This document shows, piece by piece, positions 3,330 through 53,513 of a stretch of DNA of 62,098 bases; the stretch's first letter is position 1, and each line of letters opens with the position of its first letter. The stretch is from Candidatus Omnitrophota bacterium (GTDB lineage Bacteria; Omnitrophota; Gorgyraeia; JABMRN01; RBG-13-46-9), in contig JAMXCZ010000002.1 in the NCBI GenBank assembly GCA_024542975.1, positions 1 to 62,098 on the forward strand. Direction: 5' to 3'. The position numbers and the translations under genes are program-made. The notes beneath the pieces are model-generated. The model did no database searches, was not told where the DNA came from, and saw nothing but the letters and a program-made list of their open reading frames with translations.

Positions 3330-3805
3330 TGAAACATGGAATGGAAGGATGCCCGGGTTCAAGAATGCAGGATTTTAGCAAAAAAAGCGCGGATGCAAAA
3401 GAAGAAACCGGAAAGAGAGGGTCGCAGTTGGGGCAATGGCCGATTCAGCTGCATCTTGTCTCGCCCATGGCTCCGTATTATCAAAAGAGCGATGTGCTTT
3501 TATCGGCTGATTGCGTGGCTTACAGCGTAGGAGATTTTCATAAAGATTACCTTAAGGGTAAAAGTATTGCTATTGCCTGTCCGAAACTTGATGAAGGGCA
3601 GGATATATATGTCGAGAAGATAAAGTCCCTGATCGACGATGCCCAGATAAACACCTTAACGGTTATGACCATGCAAGTTCCTTGCTGTGCGGGGCTTGTT
3701 GCTGTAGCGCAAAAGGGCCTTCAGTCGGCGAAAAGGAAGATACCCATTAAGTCTATCGTAGTAAGTCTTCAAGGGGATATTATTTCCGAGGAGTGGGTAC
3801 AGTAA
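3326..3805 (+). CDS. conserved Cys-containing redox-associated protein of unknown function
   Basis: ATGA overlap with the upstream gene. The motif WPIQLHLV...ADCVAY...IACPKLD...QVPCCAGL is one I recall from proteins annotated as Fe-S-associated. Function is not established. Confidence 0.5.
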   Translation: MMKHGMEGCPGSRMQDFSKKSADAKEETGKRGSQLGQWPIQLHLVSPMAPYYQKSDVLLSADCVAYSVGDFHKDYLKGKSIAIACPKLDEGQDIYVEKIKSLIDDAQINTLTVMTMQVPCCAGLVAVAQKGLQSAKRKIPIKSIVVSLQGDIISEEWVQ

Positions 3806-3894
3806 ATAGCGTAATCGAAAATCTTAAATGTGAGCGGTACGCGTCTCACCCGAGATAAAAGCTTTGTAACTCACCCGGCGGGTTAGGAGGAAAA

Positions 3895-4221
3895 ATGGAA
3901 GGAACAAACATTATCGGGCAGGCAGGGAACTTGACTGATTTGGTCGAATATCAGGAGGGTTCGGTCGTAAGCAAAGAGGTTATTAAACAGCCCAAAGGGT
4001 CGGTTACTCTTTTTGCTTTTGACAAGGGCCAGGGCTTAAGCGAGCATACCGCGCCGTTCGATGCTTTGGTTTACGTTTGTGACGGTGAAGCGGAGATCAC
4101 TATCTCGGGGAAGGTCCACAACTTGAAGGCCGGAGAAACCATCATAATGCCTGCCGGTAAACCGCACGCGCTGAAAGCGCAGGAACGCTTCAAGATGCTT
4201 CTGGTGATGATACGGGCTTGA
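3895..4221 (+). CDS. cupin domain protein
   Basis: 108 aa with SD GGAGG. Cupin motifs are present (G..L.EH.APFDALVYV.DGEAEI...G....L.AGE.I.MPAG.PHAL). Confidence 0.7.
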   Translation: MEGTNIIGQAGNLTDLVEYQEGSVVSKEVIKQPKGSVTLFAFDKGQGLSEHTAPFDALVYVCDGEAEITISGKVHNLKAGETIIMPAGKPHALKAQERFKMLLVMIRA

Positions 4222-4327
4222 AGGTGGGAAACCGCTCTTTCGATAATTAATACGATTTTTTTGAAATTTTCGTTGTTTTTGTGTATTATATATAGTAGAG
4301 AGTAGACTATAAGAAGGAGTGTGCAAT

Positions 4328-4867
4328 ATGAGTAAAAAGTTGATCGGGATCGTGGCTGTTGTTGCGTTGGTTTTTGGTGCCCTGGCGCTTACTGCTTTTG
4401 CGGATGGTTACGGAAAGGAAGAGGGCTACCACGGTAAGGGTAAAGGGGGAGGCTTTGAAGATAAAGTTTCGTGTAAGGCGTATTTTCTTCTGAAGAATAA
4501 GGAAGAGCTGGGGCTTTCGGATAAGCAGATAGACAAGATAAAGAAGCTTAAGCTCAGCGTCAAAAAAGACGCGATCAAGAAAAGCGCGGAAATCGAAGTG
4601 TTGGCGCTTGATATAAAAGCGGGGCTCTGGAAGGATAAGGCTAACAGCGCTGCGTTAGGTAAATTGATTGACAAGAAATACAAGCTTAAAGCGGAAAAAG
4701 CAAAGGCCGCGATTGGCGCTTATGTTGCGCTTAAGAAGGTTCTTACGAAGCCGCAGAAGGCGAAGATGAAGGGACTTTTTAAGAAATGTAAGGTGTCTGA
4801 GAAGTCTAAGAAATGTAAGGTGCCTAAGAAGTCTAAGGTGCCTAAGAAGTGTAATTTGCCGAGGTAA
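4328..4867 (+). CDS. periplasmic Spy/CpxP-like (LTxxQ-type) protein with a Lys/Cys-rich repeat tail
   Basis: Signal peptide MSKKLIGIVAVVALVFGALALTAFA. LSDKQIDKIKKLK is an LTxxQ-like motif. The C-terminal tail is KCKVSEKSKKCKVPKKSKVPKKCNLPR. ATG 4328 is preferred over GTG 4319 because of the SD AAGGAG. Confidence 0.5.
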   Translation: MSKKLIGIVAVVALVFGALALTAFADGYGKEEGYHGKGKGGGFEDKVSCKAYFLLKNKEELGLSDKQIDKIKKLKLSVKKDAIKKSAEIEVLALDIKAGLWKDKANSAALGKLIDKKYKLKAEKAKAAIGAYVALKKVLTKPQKAKMKGLFKKCKVSEKSKKCKVPKKSKVPKKCNLPR

Positions 4868-4887
4868 GACCGGTTTTACTTTAGAAA

Positions 4888-4941
4888 ACAGGGACACATT
4901 TTATTTTTCTTCCGAAAAATAAGATATGTCCCTGTTTTTTT
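4888..4941 (+). terminator. rho-independent terminator (long two-part hairpin)
   Basis: ACAGGGACA...TTATTTTTC-ttcc-GAAAAATAA...TGTCCCTGT followed by T7. Confidence 0.75.
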
Positions 4942-5004: not shown

Positions 5005-6816
5005 ATGCAGCAGAGAATGTATGATGTGCTGAAAAAATATTGGGGATATGAATCATTTCGGCCTTTGCAGAAGGAGGCGATTTTATCCATACTGGAAGAA
5101 AGGGAGAGCCTTACGGTGCTTCCTACGGGAGGGGGGAAATCTTTATGTTTCCAGCTTCCCGCGCTTTTAAAAGACGGGATGGCTTGCGTTATTTCGCCGC
5201 TCATTGCCCTTATGAAAGACCAGGTAGATGGCCTTAAGGATATGGGGATTTCTGCTGCGTATCTCAACTCCAGTATTTCGCTTACCGAAGAGCGCGCCGT
5301 AATAGATTCGATTCGAATGGGGAAGATCAAACTTTTATATATCTCACCCGAACGCCTGCAAAAAGAAACGATGATACGTCTTCTTAAGTCGGCCGGGGTT
5401 TCTTTCTTTGTTATTGATGAAGCGCACTGCATAAGCCACTGGGGGCATGACTTCAGGGAGGATTACCGGAATCTTGGTATTATCAAAGAAACGTTTGAGG
5501 GGATCAGGATACACGCCTTTACGGCTACGGCTACCGTAGAAGTCCGGAAAGATATTATAGAGCAGTTGGCATTCAATGATCCTGAGACGCAGATAGGTTC
5601 GGTGGATCGTCCAAATCTGATTTACCGCGTAATGCTGCGCACAAATATCATAAAACAGATAACCGATGTCCTGATGAGGCATCCCGATGAAGCCGGCATT
5701 ATATATTGCCTTCGCCGGGACGATGTTGAAAATGTATCGGCCAAACTAAATGACCTCGGCTTTAAAAACATCCCCTACCATGCCGGCATGACAGACAGCG
5801 CGCGGCATCTCCACCAGGACAGGTTTGTTCGCGAGGAAGTGGATATCATCGTGGCTACGGTGGCTTTTGGTTTGGGGATAGACCGCTCCAATATCCGCTT
5901 TGTTATACACGCTGCCATGCCCAAGACGATCGAGCACTATCATCAGGAGACGGGGCGCGCCGGGCGCGACGGACTCGCGTCTTATTGCTATATGTTCTAT
6001 GGCGGGATGGACTATCGCACATGGAGTTATTTTCTTAAAAATTCTCCGAGCCGGGAAACGATGAAGGCGAAGCTCGGCGCTATTTATAATTTCTGCACAA
6101 AGCCGGGGTGCCGGCACAGGATTTTTGCAAATTATTTCGGCCAATCTTATAAAAAAACTTCATGTGAGGCCTGCGACTATTGCCTGAATGAGCTCGAGAT
6201 GGTGGAGGATCCTTTGCTTTTGGGCCAGAAGATCCTGTCCTGCGTTGTCAGGGTGAGAGAAAGGCGCGGTTTTGGATTTGGCGCAGATCATATAGCAAAT
6301 GTCCTTAGGGGAAATTCGACAGAGAGAATTACCGGAAGAGGCCACCAGAATCTTTCGACTTTCGGAATAATGCCCGAAGCCTCGATACCGTTTATCCGAT
6401 ACATGATCGAACAGCTGATAGGCCAGGGTTTCCTGCTCCGCGAAGGGGAATTCTCAACGCTTTCGGTAACGCCTTCCGGAAGGGAGCTTCTTTCGGGGGA
6501 CGCCACACCTCTACTGGTCAAGCCCATGATTGCGGCAAAGAAGAAAGAGATACAGAAAAAAGCGAGAGAGAAAAAAGAAAGAGACTGGGCCGGCATGGAT
6601 CAGAAACTCTTTGAGCTTCTTCGGAAAAAAAGAGCGGAACTTGCCGGAAAACATGGTGTTCCCGCATATATCATCTTCGGCGACAAATCCCTGAAAGACA
6701 TGGCCCTCACAAAACCCGTAACCCGCGAAGCATTCGCCGCCGTATTCGGCGTAGGCGAACATAAATTAAAGATCTACGCCGACACCTTCATACAAGTTAT
6801 ATCAAACCATAACTAA
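5005..6816 (+). CDS. recQ: ATP-dependent DNA helicase RecQ
   Basis: GGGKSLCFQLPA (motif I), VIDEAHCISHWGHDFR (DEAH box), Zn-binding C..C..C..C, and a C-terminal HRDC region. Confidence 0.95.
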   Translation: MQQRMYDVLKKYWGYESFRPLQKEAILSILEERESLTVLPTGGGKSLCFQLPALLKDGMACVISPLIALMKDQVDGLKDMGISAAYLNSSISLTEERAVIDSIRMGKIKLLYISPERLQKETMIRLLKSAGVSFFVIDEAHCISHWGHDFREDYRNLGIIKETFEGIRIHAFTATATVEVRKDIIEQLAFNDPETQIGSVDRPNLIYRVMLRTNIIKQITDVLMRHPDEAGIIYCLRRDDVENVSAKLNDLGFKNIPYHAGMTDSARHLHQDRFVREEVDIIVATVAFGLGIDRSNIRFVIHAAMPKTIEHYHQETGRAGRDGLASYCYMFYGGMDYRTWSYFLKNSPSRETMKAKLGAIYNFCTKPGCRHRIFANYFGQSYKKTSCEACDYCLNELEMVEDPLLLGQKILSCVVRVRERRGFGFGADHIANVLRGNSTERITGRGHQNLSTFGIMPEASIPFIRYMIEQLIGQGFLLREGEFSTLSVTPSGRELLSGDATPLLVKPMIAAKKKEIQKKAREKKERDWAGMDQKLFELLRKKRAELAGKHGVPAYIIFGDKSLKDMALTKPVTREAFAAVFGVGEHKLKIYADTFIQVISNHN

Positions 6817-6833
6817 CCAACGCCTGCCCTTTT

Positions 6834-6890
6834 TTTAAAATAATATGCAGCAAAACGGAATATCCTGTGTCTATACATATGAAAGGAGGT
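6834..6890 (+). promoter_or_regulatory. conserved 57-nt element, copy A (ends in the SD of the small ORF)
   Basis: TTTAAAATAATATGCAGCAAAACGGAATATCCTGTGTCTATACATATGAAAGGAGGT. Copy B, about 90% identical, lies at 15708-15764. Confidence 0.6.
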
Positions 6891-6893
6891 TTT

Positions 6894-7085
6894 ATGGGAA
6901 GAATGAAAAAAGAGAAAGGTATTTCACGAAAGGATATTATCGAATTGTGCAGGCTTCTTTTTGACGGTCGGGTATCGCTTGATGCGAAAGAATTTATTAT
7001 CACCAACATCGCCGAGAGTCCCGTAAAAGAAGCGCGGGCAGCGATCGAGAAGTACAGAAGATGCAGTAAGAACGGCAAGTTATAA
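6894..7085 (+). CDS. hypothetical small protein (63 aa)
   Basis: ATG lies 4 nt after AGGAGG (6884-6889) and is in frame with ORF-track entry 6867..7085. No recognisable domain. Confidence 0.45.
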   Translation: MGRMKKEKGISRKDIIELCRLLFDGRVSLDAKEFIITNIAESPVKEARAAIEKYRRCSKNGKL

Positions 7086-7163
7086 TGCATTTACACAAAA
7101 ACATACTTGCACTTGATTTTTAAAAAGAATGTGATATAGTTTATACTTAAAGGGAGGTGGAGG

Positions 7164-9432: not shown

Positions 9433-9990
9433 ATGAATGAAACACACCACTATGTAGTAAATCATTACTTCGAAGAAAATCCCTCGGGCCACTGCGCTAA
9501 ATTATACGATGAGCTGAAGCATAAATATGGCGTGACAGTCATCTTTGAGCCGGGATCCCCTGGTGATAAAGCAGAACTTCTGCCGGATGTCAGGATTCGC
9601 GGAGAGGTTATATACCTATGCGAAAAAAAATGGGTTATTAAACTTAATGGGCTCGAAGACCCCGATATTGACAGGGTTATTTCGCATGAGCTTTTGCATA
9701 TCGCGCTCAGGTATAGAAACCGCCTGCCTTACGCCGACACGGAAAAGCTTACGAAGAACCAGATAATCGCTCTGAATGCGGTAGAAAACAGAATTATCGA
9801 GCCTGCGTTGAATAAAATATACGGCCAAAAAGATCACACTGAGTGGGGAGATGAATACGAGGAAATATTGGGCAAGATGCGCCCGTATTTGAGCGAGATA
9901 AGCGGCGTGATAACGAGGGATAGGTATCTTGAAGTCCTCGGCGAATGCTTGAAAACGTGCGGCGAATCTTTGCCGCCGTTTCTTTTGTAA
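9433..9990 (+). CDS. hypothetical protein with an HExxH (HELLH) motif, possible metallopeptidase
   Basis: ISHELLHIAL is the only recognisable feature. Confidence 0.4.
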   Translation: MNETHHYVVNHYFEENPSGHCAKLYDELKHKYGVTVIFEPGSPGDKAELLPDVRIRGEVIYLCEKKWVIKLNGLEDPDIDRVISHELLHIALRYRNRLPYADTEKLTKNQIIALNAVENRIIEPALNKIYGQKDHTEWGDEYEEILGKMRPYLSEISGVITRDRYLEVLGECLKTCGESLPPFLL

Positions 9991-10054
9991 TGAAGCTCCA
10001 GTACCGGTAGGGCAGGTTTAAACCCCCCCTACCGGTACTGGGGCTTCATTTTTC
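9991..10054 (+). terminator. strong rho-independent terminator (22-bp stem, one mismatch)
   Basis: TGAAGCTCCAGTACCGGTAGGG-14 nt-CCCTACCGGTACTGGGGCTTCA followed by TTTTT. Confidence 0.8.
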
Positions 10055-15621: not shown

Positions 15622-15710
15622 AAAGTTTTCTAACCTGGTTAGATTTGCCGGGTTAGAAGGTTTTAGAAAAGTTTTCTAACCCGGCAAATCTAACCAGGTT
15701 AGAAAACTTT
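15622..15710. repeat. perfect 37-bp inverted repeat with a 15-nt spacer, in the cinA/recA divergent region
   Basis: Arm 15622-15658 (AAAGTTTTCTAACCTGGTTAGATTTGCCGGGTTAGAA) is the exact reverse complement of arm 15674-15710. The repeat contains six TCTAACC-type half-sites. Confidence 0.9.
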
Positions 15711-23122: not shown

Positions 23123-23137
23123 GCCGGAGTGAAGAGA

Positions 23138-23746
23138 ATGAAAGTAACCGTAATTGATTATGGGCTCGGTAATCTGGCGAGCGTTTATAATGCGCTGACT
23201 TTTCTGGGGGTGGACGCTAAGGTGAGCGCTTTGCCGCAGGATATTGATAAAGCGGATAAGCTTGTTCTGCCGGGCGTCGGCGCGTTCGGTAATGCCATGG
23301 CGGGGCTCCACAAGAGAGGGCTCATCGAGCCGATAAAAAACTTTCTCACAAGCGGCAAAGCATATCTCGGCATATGCCTGGGCCTTCAGCTTCTTTTTGA
23401 GCAAAGCGAGGAGGGCGGTGTTAAGGGATTGGGCATATTTAAGGGAGAGGTTAAGCGATTTCAGGCGGCGAGCGGGATCAAAGTGCCGCATATTGGGTGG
23501 AATACTGTAAAGCTTAAAGCTGATAGCTCTAAGCTTACAGCTGATATCAAAGACGGCTCTTACTTCTATTTCGATCACTCATACTACGCCAGCCCCGAGG
23601 ACACAGGGGCCATAGCCGCCAATACCGAATATGGCATAAACTTTGCATCCATGATCCGCAGGGACAATGTATACGCCGTCCAATTTCACCCGGAGCGCAG
23701 TCAGAAGCTGGGGCTTAAGTTCCTGGAAAATTTCATTAAGCTGTAG
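23138..23746 (+). CDS. hisH: imidazole glycerol phosphate synthase, glutamine amidotransferase subunit
   Basis: VIDYGLGNL, LPGVGAFG, GICLGLQ, VQFHPERS. ATG 23138 is preferred over GTG 23129. Confidence 0.9.
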   Translation: MKVTVIDYGLGNLASVYNALTFLGVDAKVSALPQDIDKADKLVLPGVGAFGNAMAGLHKRGLIEPIKNFLTSGKAYLGICLGLQLLFEQSEEGGVKGLGIFKGEVKRFQAASGIKVPHIGWNTVKLKADSSKLTADIKDGSYFYFDHSYYASPEDTGAIAANTEYGINFASMIRRDNVYAVQFHPERSQKLGLKFLENFIKL

Positions 23747-28013: not shown

Positions 28014-28045
28014 AGCGTATAGCGTATAGCTTAAAGCTTATAGCT
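28011..28045 (+). repeat. 5 tandem heptamers, TAAAGCG TATAGCG TATAGCT TAAAGCT TATAGCT (hisI stop to trpE start)
   Basis: Read directly from the sequence. No SD lies before the trpE ATG at 28053. Confidence 0.85.
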
Positions 28046-30127: not shown

Positions 30128-30158
30128 CCGTAAGCTTTAAGCTATAAGCTGTAAGCAA
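30124..30158 (+). repeat. 5 tandem heptamers, TTAGCCG TAAGCTT TAAGCTA TAAGCTG TAAGCAA (trpG stop to trpD start)
   Basis: Read directly from the sequence. No SD lies before the trpD ATG at 30158. Confidence 0.85.
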
Positions 30159-31177
30159 TGATTAAAGAAACGATAAAAAAAATAAGAAAGAAAGAAAACC
30201 TTTCCAGAGAGGAAATGCAGGCGGTTTTTGAAGAGATCATGAGAGGGAAGTTGCCGGCCGGGGCAATAGCCGATTTTCTTGTCAGTCTTAAGAGTAAGAA
30301 GGAAACCGTCGAGGAGATAACGGGCGCTGCGCTTATCATGCGAAAGTTTGCCACAAAAATAAACCCAAAAAACAAGGAGCTTCTCGACACATGCGGCACA
30401 GGGGGAGACTCCTCAGGTACGTTCAATATCTCGACAACAAGCGCATTCGTTGCTTGCGGCGCCGGTTGCGTAGTTGCCAAACACGGCAACAAGGCCGTAT
30501 CCTCAAGTTCCGGAAGCGCTGACGTTCTCGAGGCGCTTGGCGTAAACCTGGACGTCGACAATACCACAGTCGAGGAGTGCATTGATAAAATAGGAATAGG
30601 CTTCCTCTTTGCGCCGAAGCTCCATCTTGCGATGAAATACGCAATGCCGGCGCGAAAAATGATAAAGACACGCTCAATATTCAATATTTTAGGCCCGCTT
30701 ACCAATCCGGCCGGCGCAAAGTTCCAGCTTCTGGGGGTTTACGAAGAAGGCCTTGTGGACATTGTGGCGCGAGTCCTTAAAAATTTGGGTTCAAAACGCG
30801 CAATGGTGGTTTGCGGAAAAGACGGCCTGGATGAGATAACAACAACCGATGAAACCGTAGCGGCGGAGCTCAAAGACGGTGAAATCGTAAAGTATATTAT
30901 AAAACCGGAGAAGTTCAAACTGAGGCGAGCACGAAAAAATGATTTAAAAGGCGGTGACGCACGCGACAACGCGAAGATCACGCTTGATGTGCTGAATGGA
31001 GCAAAAGGCCCGAAGCGCGATATCGTTACGCTAAACGCCGGAGCCGCGATCTACGTTGCAGGGCTTGCGGGCACATTAGAGGACGGGATCGGAAAAGCCG
31101 AAAAATCCATTGATTCGGGCGCATCATTAGAAAAATTGAATAAACTAAAGGAGCTAACAAACAATAAAAAAGCTTAA
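30158..31177 (+). CDS. trpD: anthranilate phosphoribosyltransferase
   Basis: DTCGTGGDSSGTFNISTTSAFV...VAKHGN. Confidence 0.93.
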   Translation: MIKETIKKIRKKENLSREEMQAVFEEIMRGKLPAGAIADFLVSLKSKKETVEEITGAALIMRKFATKINPKNKELLDTCGTGGDSSGTFNISTTSAFVACGAGCVVAKHGNKAVSSSSGSADVLEALGVNLDVDNTTVEECIDKIGIGFLFAPKLHLAMKYAMPARKMIKTRSIFNILGPLTNPAGAKFQLLGVYEEGLVDIVARVLKNLGSKRAMVVCGKDGLDEITTTDETVAAELKDGEIVKYIIKPEKFKLRRARKNDLKGGDARDNAKITLDVLNGAKGPKRDIVTLNAGAAIYVAGLAGTLEDGIGKAEKSIDSGASLEKLNKLKELTNNKKA

Positions 31178-31191
31178 AGCTTATAGCTGAT
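31171..31191 (+). repeat. 3 tandem heptamers, AGCTTAA AGCTTAT AGCTGAT (trpD stop to trpC start)
   Basis: The 19-mer AGCTTAAAGCTTATAGCTG (31171-31189) is identical to 28028-28046. No SD lies before the trpC ATG at 31193. Confidence 0.85.
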
Positions 31192-31986: not shown

Positions 31987-32060
31987 CCCTGTCATTCCCG
32001 CGAAAGCGGGAATCCATGGATGCTCTAATCTGGATTCCCGCTTTCGCGGGAATGACAGGG
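31987..32060. repeat. inverted pair of REP-like palindromic units (30-bp perfect arms, 14-nt spacer)
   Basis: CCCTGTCATTCCCGCGAAAGCGGGAATCCA (31987-32016) is complementary to TGGATTCCCGCTTTCGCGGGAATGACAGGG (32031-32060). Each unit is itself a TTCCCGC-GAAA-GCGGGAA hairpin. Confidence 0.9.
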
Positions 32061-44392: not shown

Positions 44393-44571
44393 GCTATGGG
44401 GAAGATTGTAACATGGGAACGTTTCCCTTCGCCATAACCCCTTATCCTACAAACACTTACATGCAATACAATTGCAATTTTCAGCGAGGTTCAGCGCCTG
44501 AAAATTGCAATCGTATCACTCGTAACGGTATATACAGTAATGGGTTACGGCAATGCGAAATGCCCCCATGC
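44393..44571 (+). other. putative multi-stem structured region downstream of plsY
   Basis: Closing helix GCTATGGGG/CCCCATGC. Internal hairpins: GGGAA-cgt-TTCCC (44415-27), a 14-bp stem ATTGCAATTTTCAG/CTGAAAATTGCAAT (44470-44511), and CGTAAC/GTTACG (44521-50). Confidence 0.35.
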
Positions 44572-44623
44572 TAAAAATGGCCGATTTCAACCGATTAGAG
44601 TATAAAAAAGGTAGTTTCACGAT

Positions 44624-45361: not shown

Positions 45362-45526
45362 TACACATCCCGGTAAGGGTAGGGGTGCCCTGCGTGCTGC
45401 GAATTCCGGCCTCAGCTAACTCATACAGGAGAAAATACAATAAGGAAACTCTATACAGTTCTCCTGTATGAGTGGATCTTCGGCCGGAATTTTCGCAATG
45501 CACCCGGGAGCCATACGGATGTGTAT
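45362..45526. repeat. long imperfect-palindrome element, copy 1 (inverted relative to copy 2)
   Basis: Helices TACACATCC/GGATGTGTA, AATTCCGGCC/GGCCGGAATT and CTCATACAGGAGAA/TTCTCCTGTATGAG, with a 25-nt apical loop. Confidence 0.8.
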
Positions 45527-45609
45527 AGAATTACCTCTCACCCTCCCCGGCACTATGCAGAAGCGACATGAAGACGAATCCGTAACTTAAGTGTGAAATC
45601 GCAGAAATG

Positions 45610-45793
45610 TGCGCTCCGGTCCGGTAGGGAAGCTAGTCCTTGGCACATTGCGAAAATTTTACCTCGAGATCCACCCAGACAGGAGAATTATACAGAGTTT
45701 CCTATATTGTGTATTCTCCTGGCTGGGTTAGCTGAAGCCAAAATTCGCGTGCCAAGGGCTAGCTTCCCTACCGGACCGGGGGGATGTAGCGCA
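45610..45793. repeat. long imperfect-palindrome element, copy 2
   Basis: A 31-bp helix (45616-45646 with 45749-45779) has a single T.G pair. An inner 14-bp helix (45674-87 with 45714-27) is also present. Loops are homologous to the reverse complement of copy 1. Confidence 0.8.
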
Positions 45794-52267: not shown

Positions 52268-52673
52268 AGCTCACCAGCGGGACTTCTGCTTCCCCGCCTT
52301 TATGCGTCCAATACACCGTAACAGTTACCTGTTTAAGGTTTGTTTCCGGCTCCGTAACTACGACTTCTCTTTGAAATACTGAAAACCCGGTCACGACTGC
52401 TTTGGCCTCATTCACAATGTTTGCGTAAGTGAGATTACGGATTTCTTCCATCCTCTCCTGCGCAAGATTCACAGCAATCGCAGTATTTTCCGCGTCGAGA
52501 GCACCTGCCATACCGCTTGAGAGTAACGAAACCACAGCAACAATCCCAACCCCAAAAAGAACGATCGCGATCATAACCTCCAGTAACGTAAAACCGTCGT
52601 TCGTCGTTCGTCGTTCGTCGTTCGTTGATCGTTTGGATATAGTGCGTTTTTTTTTAGTTACTAATGAAGGCAT
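52251..52673 (-). CDS. PilV/GspI-like pseudopilin with an unusually long 27-aa leader
   Basis: ...TTNDG/FTLLEVMIAIVLFGVGIV. Leader residues STNDERRTTND are encoded by the heptad repeat. Confidence 0.7.
   Translation of the reverse strand: MPSLVTKKKRTISKRSTNDERRTTNDGFTLLEVMIAIVLFGVGIVAVVSLLSSGMAGALDAENTAIAVNLAQERMEEIRNLTYANIVNEAKAVVTGFSVFQREVVVTEPETNLKQVTVTVYWTHKGGEAEVPLVSYVAAN
52596..52630. repeat. (GTCGTTC)4 + GTTGATC heptad array
   Basis: Read directly from the sequence. It is inverted relative to 53034-53057. Confidence 0.9.
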
Positions 52674-53014
52674 TTTATTAAGTTCATTAACATTTTGCTC
52701 TCATGGTTTAGGTCTTCCTCTAATTTTCCCATAGCATCGGAGGTCACGTATTTTCTCTTTTTGCCGATGATCAGCTGCGTTTCGAGCTCCGCGCAAGACC
52801 CTAACGATACATATAAGAACTGCTTATATTCCTTGCTATGATGCCGCACAAATCCCTCGGCAATATTCGAGGGAATACTCACAGCACATCTTCGCATTTG
52901 AGCAACAAGTCCATACTGTTCCTGTCTCGGGAACTTATCAGTAATTACGTATACATTGTCAACAATAGCAATACCTTTTTTCCAAACATTCAAATCTTTA
53001 TAAGACTTAACCAT
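52661..53014 (-). CDS. four-helix-bundle protein ('23S rRNA intervening-sequence protein' family, TIGR02436/PF05635-like)
   Basis: YKDLNVWKKGIAIVDNVYVITDKFPRQEQYGLVAQMRRCAVSIPSNIAEG....SKEYKQFL.VSLGSCAELETQL. Confidence 0.85.
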   Translation of the reverse strand: MVKSYKDLNVWKKGIAIVDNVYVITDKFPRQEQYGLVAQMRRCAVSIPSNIAEGFVRHHSKEYKQFLYVSLGSCAELETQLIIGKKRKYVTSDAMGKLEEDLNHESKMLMNLIKCLH

Positions 53015-53030
53015 ATCAATTTCACCAATT

Positions 53031-53057
53031 CACGAGCGACGAACGACGAACGACGAG
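53031..53057. repeat. CAC GAGCGAC (GAACGAC)2 GAG heptad array immediately 3' of the major pilin stop
   Basis: Its reverse complement matches 20 consecutive nt of the 52596-52630 array. Confidence 0.9.
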
Positions 53058-53513
53058 TTAGGGCTGAGTGTCTGTACTCATGTTGGAGACATAGATACAG
53101 CTTGAGCTGTTTGTTTCAGATACAGCATCAGCCACTATGGAGGCGCTACCATTTCCGTCCGGGCCGGCGGAGTAGATTATATAAAACTTGCTATTGGTCC
53201 CTCCCATTACATACGCGTAATCGGCGCCGGAGGAGCTAAAAGGGTCTGTGGGTACGAAATTTATAATGCTGGGCACAGCGCTGGCCAGGGCAGTCTGTAG
53301 AGCCGCAGCGCCCGTGGCCGGATATGCATTACTATTGTGGATATAATAGCTTTCCACCGCCGTCTGCAAAGTCCTTAATTCGCCCTTCGCTTTTGCGATA
53401 TTACCCTCGTCCTGCATTCCCTTGAAACGCGGAAGCGCTATGCCGATCAGAATTGATATCACCGCTATTACGATTAAAAGTTCAATCAGTGTAAAGCCTT
53501 TTTTCTTCAACAT
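53058..53513 (-). CDS. major type IV pilin / GspG-like pseudopilin
   Basis: MLKKKG/FTLIELLIVIAVISILIGIALPRF...AKAKGELRTLQTAVESYY. Confidence 0.85.
   Translation of the reverse strand: MLKKKGFTLIELLIVIAVISILIGIALPRFKGMQDEGNIAKAKGELRTLQTAVESYYIHNSNAYPATGAAALQTALASAVPSIINFVPTDPFSSSGADYAYVMGGTNSKFYIIYSAGPDGNGSASIVADAVSETNSSSCIYVSNMSTDTQP

Follow-up and report, generated by a model that had tools for sequence, protein, structure and literature searches.

A four-helix-bundle gene between paired heptamer arrays: a probable intervening-sequence-type cassette in a type IV pilus operon of Candidatus Omnitrophota

Why is a gene of the "23S rRNA IVS protein" family (IVS, intervening sequence) found in the middle of a type IV pilus operon, flanked by two heptamer arrays that are inverted with respect to one another? 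We examined this question in 62,098 nt of Candidatus Omnitrophota DNA (contig JAMXCZ010000002.1, positions 1 to 62,098; the window hereafter), in which the pilus operon occupies the minus strand and the gene, encoding a 117-aa four-helix-bundle (4HB) protein, lies between those of the major pilin and the first pseudopilin (pp1). We consider it fairly probable that the gene and its arrays make up an IVS-type cassette whose arms pair in the RNA, and that cutting of the duplex by RNase III, or its opening by ribosomes, lowers or conditions expression of the genes downstream.

A heptad-bounded insertion between pilin and pseudopilin

On the plus strand, positions 53031-53057 read CACGAGCGAC(GAACGAC)2GAG and positions 52596-52630 read (GTCGTTC)4GTTGATC, letter for letter as the original prediction for this locus had given them. 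Tandem Repeats Finder delimits these as period-7 arrays, one at 52595-52625 with 4.4 copies and 100% matches and the other at 53032-53056 with 3.6 copies, and a repeat search returned inverted-repeat arms at 52601-52625 and 53032-53056 that are 25 nt long, 96% complementary, and 406 nt apart. Only one other comparable inverted pair separated by more than 100 nt exists in the window (45616-45646/45749-45779; 31 nt, 97%). Allowing up to two mismatches, the 14-mer GTCGTTCGTCGTTC occurs seven times in the window against 0.31 expected, a count reached in 0 of 100 shuffles. We folded the sense RNA (52585-53070, minus strand), with z-scores taken against dinucleotide shuffles. The minimum free energy (MFE) and centroid structures share the same closing stem, in which the 20 consecutive complementary nucleotides claimed originally form 20 uninterrupted pairs, followed by a mismatch and then 4 + 4 more pairs (z = -4.0). 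Arm to arm, the duplex energy is -44.8 kcal/mol.

The original prediction also described a portable cassette that had landed in an operon, and called for comparison with relatives' pilin operons that lack it. This comparison supports the proposal. We read the taxonomy of relatives from PilB matches; the PilB homologues that carry a name all belong to Candidatus Omnitrophota. The closest relative found (L189/L190; PilB 86%, PilC 79%, and pilin 88.5% identical) has the same operon, with pilin and pp1 overlapping at TAATG, a pp1 leader of 4 aa, and no insert. Aligned with L189, the window contains an insert of 462 nt extending exactly from 53057 to 52596, from outer arm end to outer arm end, in place of an 11-nt leader, and homology is clean on both sides. 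The 4HB gene is likewise absent from this junction in 36 of 36 pilC-selected operons, these being the ones in which both pilin and pp1 could be located. Because the closest relative and the 36 related operons are without the block, and because its boundaries fall at the outer arm ends, the alignments indicate that these 462 nt were inserted as a portable cassette, exactly between the major pilin stop codon, with the 5' arm beginning at the first base past it, and the Gly(-1) codon of pp1. A scan of the coding strand from pilin to pp1 for promoters and terminators gave nothing above shuffles; the cassette is promoterless and transcribed inside the host operon.

Related cassettes occupy other junctions. 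In L196, arms of the form GTCGYTC ... (GAACGAC)4.5 surround a 66%-identical 4HB gene between pilB and pilC, where L169, L135, and L176 carry a divergent member of the family. At the junction of the V-ATPase A and B genes, some population samples hold a frameshifted 4HB pseudogene with heptad arms (L015, 6605-7075), in place of which L016 (6609-6650) has a hairpin with a 13-nt loop built from the same heptads. The pilin-pp1 junction is itself repeatedly occupied by differing inserts among relatives, and the cassette found there in the window is common only to the window and L001/L002. These are the most distant operons of the set (PilB 68%, PilC 61%, pp1 37% identical), and the distribution of the cassette therefore departs from the PilB/PilC tree. 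Their pilin is nevertheless 90% identical (L001 3507-3956), the major pilin of the window being 88-90% identical to those of L189, L191, and L001; this pattern suggests that the pilin gene has been recombined or exchanged, possibly along with the cassette.

In one respect the original prediction does not hold. It had the stem enclosing exactly the 4HB open reading frame (ORF), whereas the stem encloses the 4HB cistron plus the start of pp1. The only in-frame start of pp1, ATG 52673, is inside the loop and overlaps the end of the 4HB gene. It opens a 26-aa leader, MPSLVTKKKRTISKRSTNDERRTTND, before G/FTLLE (the slash marks the prepilin site), and the 3' arm supplies codons 15-26 of this leader (STNDERRTTND-G/FTLLE). 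In relatives without the cassette, pp1 leaders are 4-8 aa. L001 is arranged like the window, with the leader MMTSRITNHESRITNH-G/FTLLE and an ATGA stop/start overlap.

The gene, its arrays, and their pairing across the family

The protein is assigned without ambiguity. It matches PF05635 (E = 7e-37) and TIGR02436 (116 bits against a cut-off of 24), and its AlphaFold model (predicted local distance difference test score, pLDDT, 86) superposes on PDB 2GSC with a template modeling (TM) score of 0.91 and on 2RLD with 0.80; the gene predicted between major pilin and pseudopilin is therefore of the IVS family, as claimed. The model also resembles Avd, the accessory protein of diversity-generating retroelements (DGRs), with TM scores of 0.73-0.78 (4DWL; 8UB7-8UBE, structures of a DGR ribonucleoprotein). 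We rejected Avd as the identity of the protein: it reaches neither the equivalog NF033474 (22.1 bits, cut-off 80) nor PF22296 (24.7 bits, cut-off 40), and every gene within ~4 kb belongs to the pilus. Among these neighbors, to which the scan for a reverse transcriptase was confined, neither that enzyme nor template and variable repeats were found, and there is no long direct repeat near the 4HB ORF.

Between the window and L001/L002, the proportions of nonsynonymous and synonymous differences in the ORF (pN and pS) are 0.16 and 0.76. Across positional orthologues pS is ~0.75, which is saturated, and pN is 0.12-0.18, giving a dN/dS of at most 0.05-0.15 where it is estimable. These values indicate strong purifying selection, and the ORF is therefore not a mere passenger. 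The 5' arm, too, is near-identical in the window and L001 even with this saturation. An exact database look-up found no record of this protein, and tblastn found no second 4HB gene in the window. Viral contigs yielded a single weak match to its subfamily, which is thus not obviously phage-borne. The family as a whole is large, with PF05635/TIGR02436 matching 20,077 representatives of 50%-identity clusters at E <= 1e-3.

We assembled 85 non-redundant homologue loci from Planctomycetota, Omnitrophota, Nitrospirota, Atribacterota, Verrucomicrobiota, and other phyla. On both flanks of the gene, identity at lag 7 is 0.42 as against ~0.26 at other lags. The flanking arrays consist of about 4-5 units per arm, each with a conserved 3-nt core (CGT upstream, ACG downstream) and four variable positions, in a strict 7-nt period. 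The arms are complementary in 71 of the 85 loci (median arm 28 nt, 82% Watson-Crick), and the 5' arm stands a median of 29 nt from the start codon. Neighboring genes lie on the same strand upstream in 78/85 loci and downstream in 70/85, across gaps of ~57 and ~42 nt that are essentially just the arms. Recorded host operons include those for pili, V-ATPase, hyp, dnaJ, efp, cas, par, and nrd functions, as well as rRNA.

Upstream heptads come in 146 different forms across these loci, and complementarity follows the locus: the median arm score is 12 within loci and 7 between them (p = 3e-23). This cross-locus control is conservative because many loci share heptad flavors, and we therefore added a heptad-level test and a census of pil-selected sequence. 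In the former, a heptad's variable bases turn up again in the opposite arm in 33% of cases versus 7%. In the latter, a 542-kb set that is unbiased toward the 4HB gene because its loci were chosen through pilus genes, inverted arrays bracket 4/4 of the 4HB genes, and every inverted array pair 380-400 nt apart encloses one. Among annotated records from cultured strains, 8/9 have the inverted layout: Nostoc (two), Calothrix, Geminocystis, Picosynechococcus (between cmr2 and cmr3), Leptolyngbya, Riemerella, and Azospirillum. The core varies, from CGT/ACG here to a G-rich purine type in cyanobacteria and Azospirillum and GGTT in Riemerella. A 4HB gene accompanied by inverted heptads is a hallmark of the PF05635/TIGR02436 family. 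One of the cyanobacterial cassettes shows a rare orientation: in Nostoc edaphicum pNe_5 (L186, 1495-1863), the 4HB cassette, with arms (GTAGGGA)8 ... (TCCCTAC)5, is antisense between nrdB and nrdA.

Several observations place the pairing at the level of RNA. Among non-Watson-Crick arm positions, sense-strand G.U outnumbers A.C by 87 to 50, where an A.C on the sense strand is a G.U on the antisense strand. Counted by locus the excess is 33 versus 14 (sign test p = 0.008), and the bootstrap confidence interval of the G.U fraction is 0.54-0.73. In positional orthologues from Nitrospira, the outer heptad forms a compensatory series, appearing as GTCGTTC:GAACGAC (L101), with a U.G pair (L099), and as GTCGCTC:GAGCGAC (L077). 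The covariation evidence consists of the within-locus versus cross-locus statistics and this A-U, G.U, G-C series; variable array lengths and registers preclude a trustworthy alignment of arms. ORF-less heptad elements in the pilin-pseudopilin spacer of relatives are tight hairpins (L132, -36 kcal/mol; L120, -41 kcal/mol). Family-wide covariation and the sense-strand G.U excess both uphold the arm pairing proposed originally, and from these comparisons the arms appear not only able to form a long duplex but selected to do so.

The host operon and other repeats of the window

The features of the operon are collected in Table 1. Gene order (PilB-PilC-major pilin-minor pilins-PilM/N-PilO) and the prepilin G/FTLLE sites confirm a host operon for type IV pili, similar to type IVa (T4aP-like). 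The fusion of PilM with PilN and the F5/8 type C domain of the third pseudopilin are both conserved in related Omnitrophota operons. No rRNA was found anywhere in the window, and Rfam gave no match, either for the cassette region at a permissive E-value or for the whole window at the gathering threshold. The window shows neither the RNase III signature motif nor an rnc gene, a result that is uninformative about the genome as a whole.

Table 1. Features of the pilus operon and its cassette in the window
Feature	Position	Strand	Remarks
Response regulator	56838-56467	-	
PilB ATPase	56464-54764	-	
PilC	54764-53550	-	
Major pilin, 151 aa	53513-53058	-	PF07963 N_methyl + PF08334 T2SSG; stop codon 53060-53058 directly abuts 5' arm
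5' arm	53057-53031	-	Sense RNA CUCGUCGUUCGUCGUUCGUCGCUCGUG; ~3.6 heptads, GTCGYTC type; untranslated
Short leader within loop	53030-53015	-	Weak Shine-Dalgarno-like GGUGA at 53026-53022, 7 nt 5' of the 4HB ATG
4HB gene, 117 aa	53014-52661	-	PF05635 / TIGR02436 ("23S rRNA IVS protein", "S23p")
3' arm	52632-52596	-	Sense RNA ACGAUCAACGAACGACGAACGACGAACGACGAACGAC; (GAACGAC)4 + one degenerate unit; coding
First pseudopilin (pp1)	52673-52251	-	N_methyl; ATG 52673-52671 overlaps last 4HB codons
Second pseudopilin (pp2)	52267-51734	-	N_methyl
Third pseudopilin	51732-50938	-	F5/8 type C (discoidin) domain
PilM-PilN fusion, 547 aa	50981-49338	-	
Solo 5'-type array	49337-49319	-	GTCGTTC x2.7 then GTGAATCGTAAGGA; right after PilM-N stop, upstream of pilO
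PilO	49289-48753	-	

Pilus operons of relatives have taken up other genes as well. L191 (PilB 81% identical) carries an AbiEii toxin-antitoxin pair between pilB and pilC and a Fic gene just upstream of pilB (6244-7153, 3352-4497), which marks the pilus operon as a frequent landing site. Heptads also occur within coding sequence: L169 has an in-frame (GTCAGAA)4 array within pilB (261-294), encoding GQKSEVRSQKSE, and in the window a five-unit period-7 array of TAAAGCT-like heptads (23508-23542, plus strand) is in frame within a HisH-like amidotransferase ORF (23129-23746).

The solo array after the PilM-PilN fusion (Table 1) can pair with the cassette 3' arm at -40.3 kcal/mol, little short of the cognate 5' arm (-44.8 kcal/mol). 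Elsewhere in the window, the hisI/trpE, trpG/trpD, and trpD/trpC spacers (28014-28045, 30128-30157, and 31165-31190, plus strand) are almost wholly AGCT-type heptads: (AGCKTAT)n, (TAAGCTN)n, and (AAAGCTT)n. The second of these arrays is complementary to the first and to the third (-39.7 and -24.8 kcal/mol), so that complementary arrays stand on both sides of trpE-trpG and likewise of trpD, without a 4HB gene; the outer two are not mutually complementary (-17.3 kcal/mol).

A separate family of strong intergenic palindromes, unrelated to the heptads and reminiscent of repetitive extragenic palindromic (REP) elements, lies at 31987-32060, 15622-15710, 2463-2511, 4885-4938, and 9989-10050, in addition to spacers at 3806, 4868, 9322, 27525, and 36126; one example has perfect 30-nt arms, CCCTGTCATTCCCGCGAAAGCGGGAATCCA. 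These palindromes are complementary between spacers, down to -70 kcal/mol, and they swamped a global screen of the window's spacers for mutual complementarity. Finally, a region of ~1.5 kb with small ORFs only contains long imperfect inverted repeats at 44406-44576 and 45443-45779 (79 nt, 72%; 67 nt, 76%; 31 nt, 97%). Its motif GGGAACGTTTCCCTTCGCCATAACCC resembles an insert of ~190 nt, itself unrelated, that L191 carries between pilin and pseudopilin; there is no Rfam match.

Possible roles of the arms and relation to known systems

In the reading we prefer, read-through transcription would place the cassette in the polycistronic RNA, where the 5' arm (GUCGUUC-type) and the 3' arm ((GAACGAC)4) would pair over at least 20 bp, or ~28 bp with interruptions, looping out the 4HB cistron. 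The geometry of this stem would be like that of 23S rRNA elements cut by RNase III, and by analogy with these the enzyme would recognize and cleave the cassette duplex. For genes downstream of the major pilin, the likeliest consequence would be lower or conditional expression. A cut in the duplex would yield a pilB-pilC-pilin message with a base-paired 3' end and would part pp1 from its start codon; alternatively, ribosomes leaving the 4HB cistron could open the duplex. The overlap of the pp1 ATG with the 4HB stop region would couple pseudopilin synthesis to 4HB translation, and the stem could serve as a brake on minor-pilin expression that is relieved by re-initiation at the pp1 start, which would unwind the 3' arm. 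The frequency of Shine-Dalgarno sequences, 41% at 4HB starts versus 30% at downstream gene starts, is uninformative here. For the organism of the window, we would predict that the proportion of major to minor pilins is set after transcription. Gene-sized RNase III stems would more generally offer a testable mechanism for segmenting or gating operon messages.

Some of the data weigh against this interpretation. The original prediction envisaged that cleavage would neatly uncouple the pilin message from those of the minor pilins. Because the pp1 ATG is in the loop and the 3' arm is coding, a cut in the stem would instead decapitate pp1, separating its sole in-frame start from its body; were cutting constitutively efficient, pp1 would be abolished and probably the translationally linked pp2 with it. 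In L001, every heptad contains a mismatch, so that arm pairing is limited to 6-bp blocks, and the fold has a z of just -1.2. Several loci, such as a set upstream of dnaJ, pair mainly at the CGT/ACG cores. One cassette is a clear exception to the inverted rule, the sole one we met: in Pseudanabaena galeata pPg_01 (L200; 890-1000, 1361-1465), the 4HB gene between cas6 and cas4 has direct arrays, (AAAAGCT)15 upstream and (AAAAGCC)9 plus variants downstream. Lastly, this genome has other intercistronic spacers that lack a 4HB gene and yet are filled by heptad arrays, some of them complementary; the arrays may therefore do something for which the stem is not needed.

This last point keeps alive the foremost alternative, which we regard as unlikely: that the arrays serve first of all to bind a protein at periodic sites, most plausibly the 4HB ring oligomer itself or else a protein of the Csp/S1 type, with pairing and RNase III cleavage secondary. 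Each subunit would read one CGU or ACG triplet, and at every intercistronic junction with heptads the 4HB protein would regulate translation or stability in trans. A conserved core repeated at a strict period amid variable bases is what such a reader would favor, and HutP, which binds UAG-N4 repeats, provides a parallel. The closest solved homologues were deposited as five chains, and Avd within an RNA-protein complex (2GSC, 2RLD, 4DWL, 8UB7); arrays typically have 4-5 units (mostly 4 in Xanthomonas; PMC4692102). Solo arrays sit immediately upstream of start codons in the window and in relatives, as TAACTGA repeats do (PMC4679880), and the many loci whose arms match only in their cores, like the direct arrays of Pseudanabaena, fit binding by a protein. 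Against this stand the complementarity at variable positions, which is specific to each locus, and the sense-strand G.U excess, both of which favor pairing. The core is moreover not universal, and the ORF-less arrays at the same junctions are tight hairpins.

Pairing and binding could be parts of one system. As a homologue of the RNA-binding Avd pentamers, the 4HB protein probably acts on the repeat RNA, and heptamer-repeat RNA becomes its candidate ligand. Complementary heptad arrays may punctuate operons more generally. A bolder proposal, to which we assign a low probability, is that PF05635 proteins and heptamer arrays are two halves of one widespread RNA-level system, in which a pentamer reads the 7-nt register at about one heptad per subunit and gates the pairing of intercistronic arrays and their cutting by RNase III. 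If so, 4HB cassettes would seed new arrays and hairpins in operons and rRNA. Such a system would explain the origin of ORF-bearing rRNA IVSs, the function of ~20,000 clusters of four-helix-bundle proteins, and the excess of intergenic heptamers, including TAACTGA, GGGAATC, and the short tandemly repeated repetitive (STRR) sequences.

Could the arms instead act as DNA? They could be the terminal inverted repeats of a non-autonomous mobile element, or its substrate for recombination in cruciform or hairpin form, and the RNA stem would then be an irrelevant by-product. The insertion polymorphism, the same cassette flavor at differing junctions, the repeated filling of the pilin-pp1 junction by differing inserts, and a distribution off the PilB/PilC tree would all suit such an element. 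No transposase, integrase, or other recombinase gene adjoins the cassette, however, and its junctions show no target-site duplication. Arm sequences vary so greatly between copies that one enzyme could not read them all. Neither the strand-specific G.U bias nor the strong co-orientation with host transcription is expected of a DNA element; cassettes are kept at orthologous positions across genera with their ORF under purifying selection, and arrays are identical across population samples (10 each at two cassettes, L005-L014 and L015-L024, and 4 for L001-L004). We judge a role as DNA to be quite improbable. A transposon, a miniature inverted-repeat transposable element, or an integron cassette was rejected in particular, given the lack of target-site duplication and of an adjacent recombinase, and the 146 differing upstream heptads.

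It is more doubtful still that the 3' array is a phase-variation switch in which slippage by one heptad (7 nt) shifts the pp1 frame and turns the minor pilins off or on. One unit gained or lost does destroy that frame; heptamer copy number varies among Coxiella strains (PMC4990558) and controls the H. influenzae hmw adhesin (PMC12721329). Copy number does not differ among L001-L004, though, nor among ten samples each of two other cassettes; the arrays are non-coding in nearly all other loci; and four units are short for a high rate of slippage. That the arrays are neutral slippage products with fortuitous complementarity around an unrelated small gene is already disfavored and scarcely credible, since, even with heptamer repeats over-represented in bacterial intergenic DNA (cited in PMC4692102), chance is rejected by the shuffle and cross-locus controls, inverted arrays surround 4/4 4HB genes of the unbiased set and 8/9 of those in cultured strains, and the window and L001 have kept their 5' arm in common even with synonymous sites saturated.

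We return, then, to an IVS-type cassette acting through RNA, and to its relatives among known systems. RNase III stems that bracket whole genes are familiar from the pre-16S and pre-23S rRNA stems and from phage T7 early mRNA. In these, distant flanking sequences pair with one another, a complete functional unit is held in the loop, and cutting of the flanks sets it free, although these flanks are not tandem heptamers, are not mobile, and come without a 4HB protein. Avd shares the fold and a weak PF22296/NF033474 similarity, and its pentamer contacts structured RNA; the window protein is only 12-15% identical to it, fails the equivalog cut-off, and has no reverse transcriptase, template repeat, or variable repeat beside it.

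The nearest likeness is to the 23S rRNA IVSs with an S23p ORF in Coxiella burnetii, Leptospira, and Azospirillum, and the original description of this locus as IVS-like is supported by two of them. In Azospirillum lipoferum 4B, a complete 23S rRNA gene on plasmid AZO_p2 (L185) holds a TIGR02436 ORF (110 bits) between the inverted arms (AGAGGAC/GGATGAC)n ... (GTCCTCT/GTCTTCT)n. In Coxiella, the S23p ORF is preceded by tandem heptamers and lies inside a 28-bp stem, which RNase III cuts at the first repeat in vitro, with ends confirmed by RACE (rapid amplification of cDNA ends); strains differ in heptamer copy number (PMC4990558). The cassette of the window shares with these IVSs the protein family, terminal inverted repeats of tandem heptamers that form a 20-30-bp stem around the ORF (PMC4990558), and a sporadic, non-tree-like distribution. 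It differs in its host, a protein-coding operon with pilin and pseudopilin flanks rather than an rRNA helix; in its ORF, intact and under purifying selection here, whereas that of Coxiella is decaying and probably untranslated; in a 3' arm translated as a prepilin leader; in its CGT/ACG heptads, which are purine-rich in rRNA IVSs; and in RNase III cleavage, demonstrated there and proposed by analogy here. With pilus genes as flanks and no rRNA in the window, the element is therefore an IVS-like cassette and not an rRNA IVS.

An RNase III-processed heptamer hairpin in an mRNA has a precedent in the 5' untranslated region of H. influenzae hmw1A, where the processing of a (ATCTTTC)n hairpin sets adhesin expression (Rapun-Araiz et al. 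2025, PMC12721329). It resembles the cassette in having a tandem 7-nt array as one arm of a long hairpin in the mRNA of a gene for a surface adhesin or fiber. In hmw1A, by contrast, a single array faces a non-repeat G-rich arm, the loop has no ORF, no 4HB protein is involved, and the repeat units are far more numerous and hypervariable.

Tandem heptamers have been catalogued for decades in cyanobacteria, Xanthomonas, Beggiatoa, and Bacteroidota, among them TAACTGA, placed immediately upstream of start codons (MacGregor 2015, PMC4679880), GGGAATC/GGGGAYT, with mostly 4 units in Xanthomonas (Rehm 2015, PMC4692102), and the cyanobacterial STRR sequences; bacterial intergenic DNA generally contains more heptamer simple sequence repeats (SSRs) than expected (cited in PMC4692102). 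The arrays described here belong with such SSRs: two or more 7-nt units in tandem occupy a short spacer that separates co-directional genes, often abutting a start codon. The catalogued repeats likewise have 2-6 units, mostly ~4, in short spacers and often end a few nucleotides before a start codon; convergent inverted pairs were noted in Xanthomonas, and cyanobacteria, Bacteroidota, and Xanthomonas also hold 4HB genes. What sets the cassette apart is a complementary array pair around a specific gene, and the published proposals are of G-quadruplexes or unspecified RNA-binding regulators, with no link to PF05635 (PMC4679880, PMC4692102).

23S_rRNA_IVP genes inside cas operons were reported previously and read as possibly CRISPR-associated, with neither flanking repeats nor mobility noted (Zhang & Ye 2013, PMC3936711). 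They resemble the case at hand in that a PF05635 gene is wedged co-directionally within an unrelated operon, and we see 4HB genes in cas operons again (cas6-4HB-cas4, cmr2-4HB-cmr3). Full-text literature searches turned up no paper that links this protein family to flanking inverted heptamer arrays, or that describes 4HB cassettes as invaders of operons, and the family-wide link appears to be unreported. Three threads have thus been noticed separately: ORF-bearing rRNA IVSs, heptamer SSRs (PMC4679880, PMC4692102), and PF05635 genes in cas operons (PMC3936711). Drawn together, they would make the rRNA IVS a special case of a general operon-invading element.

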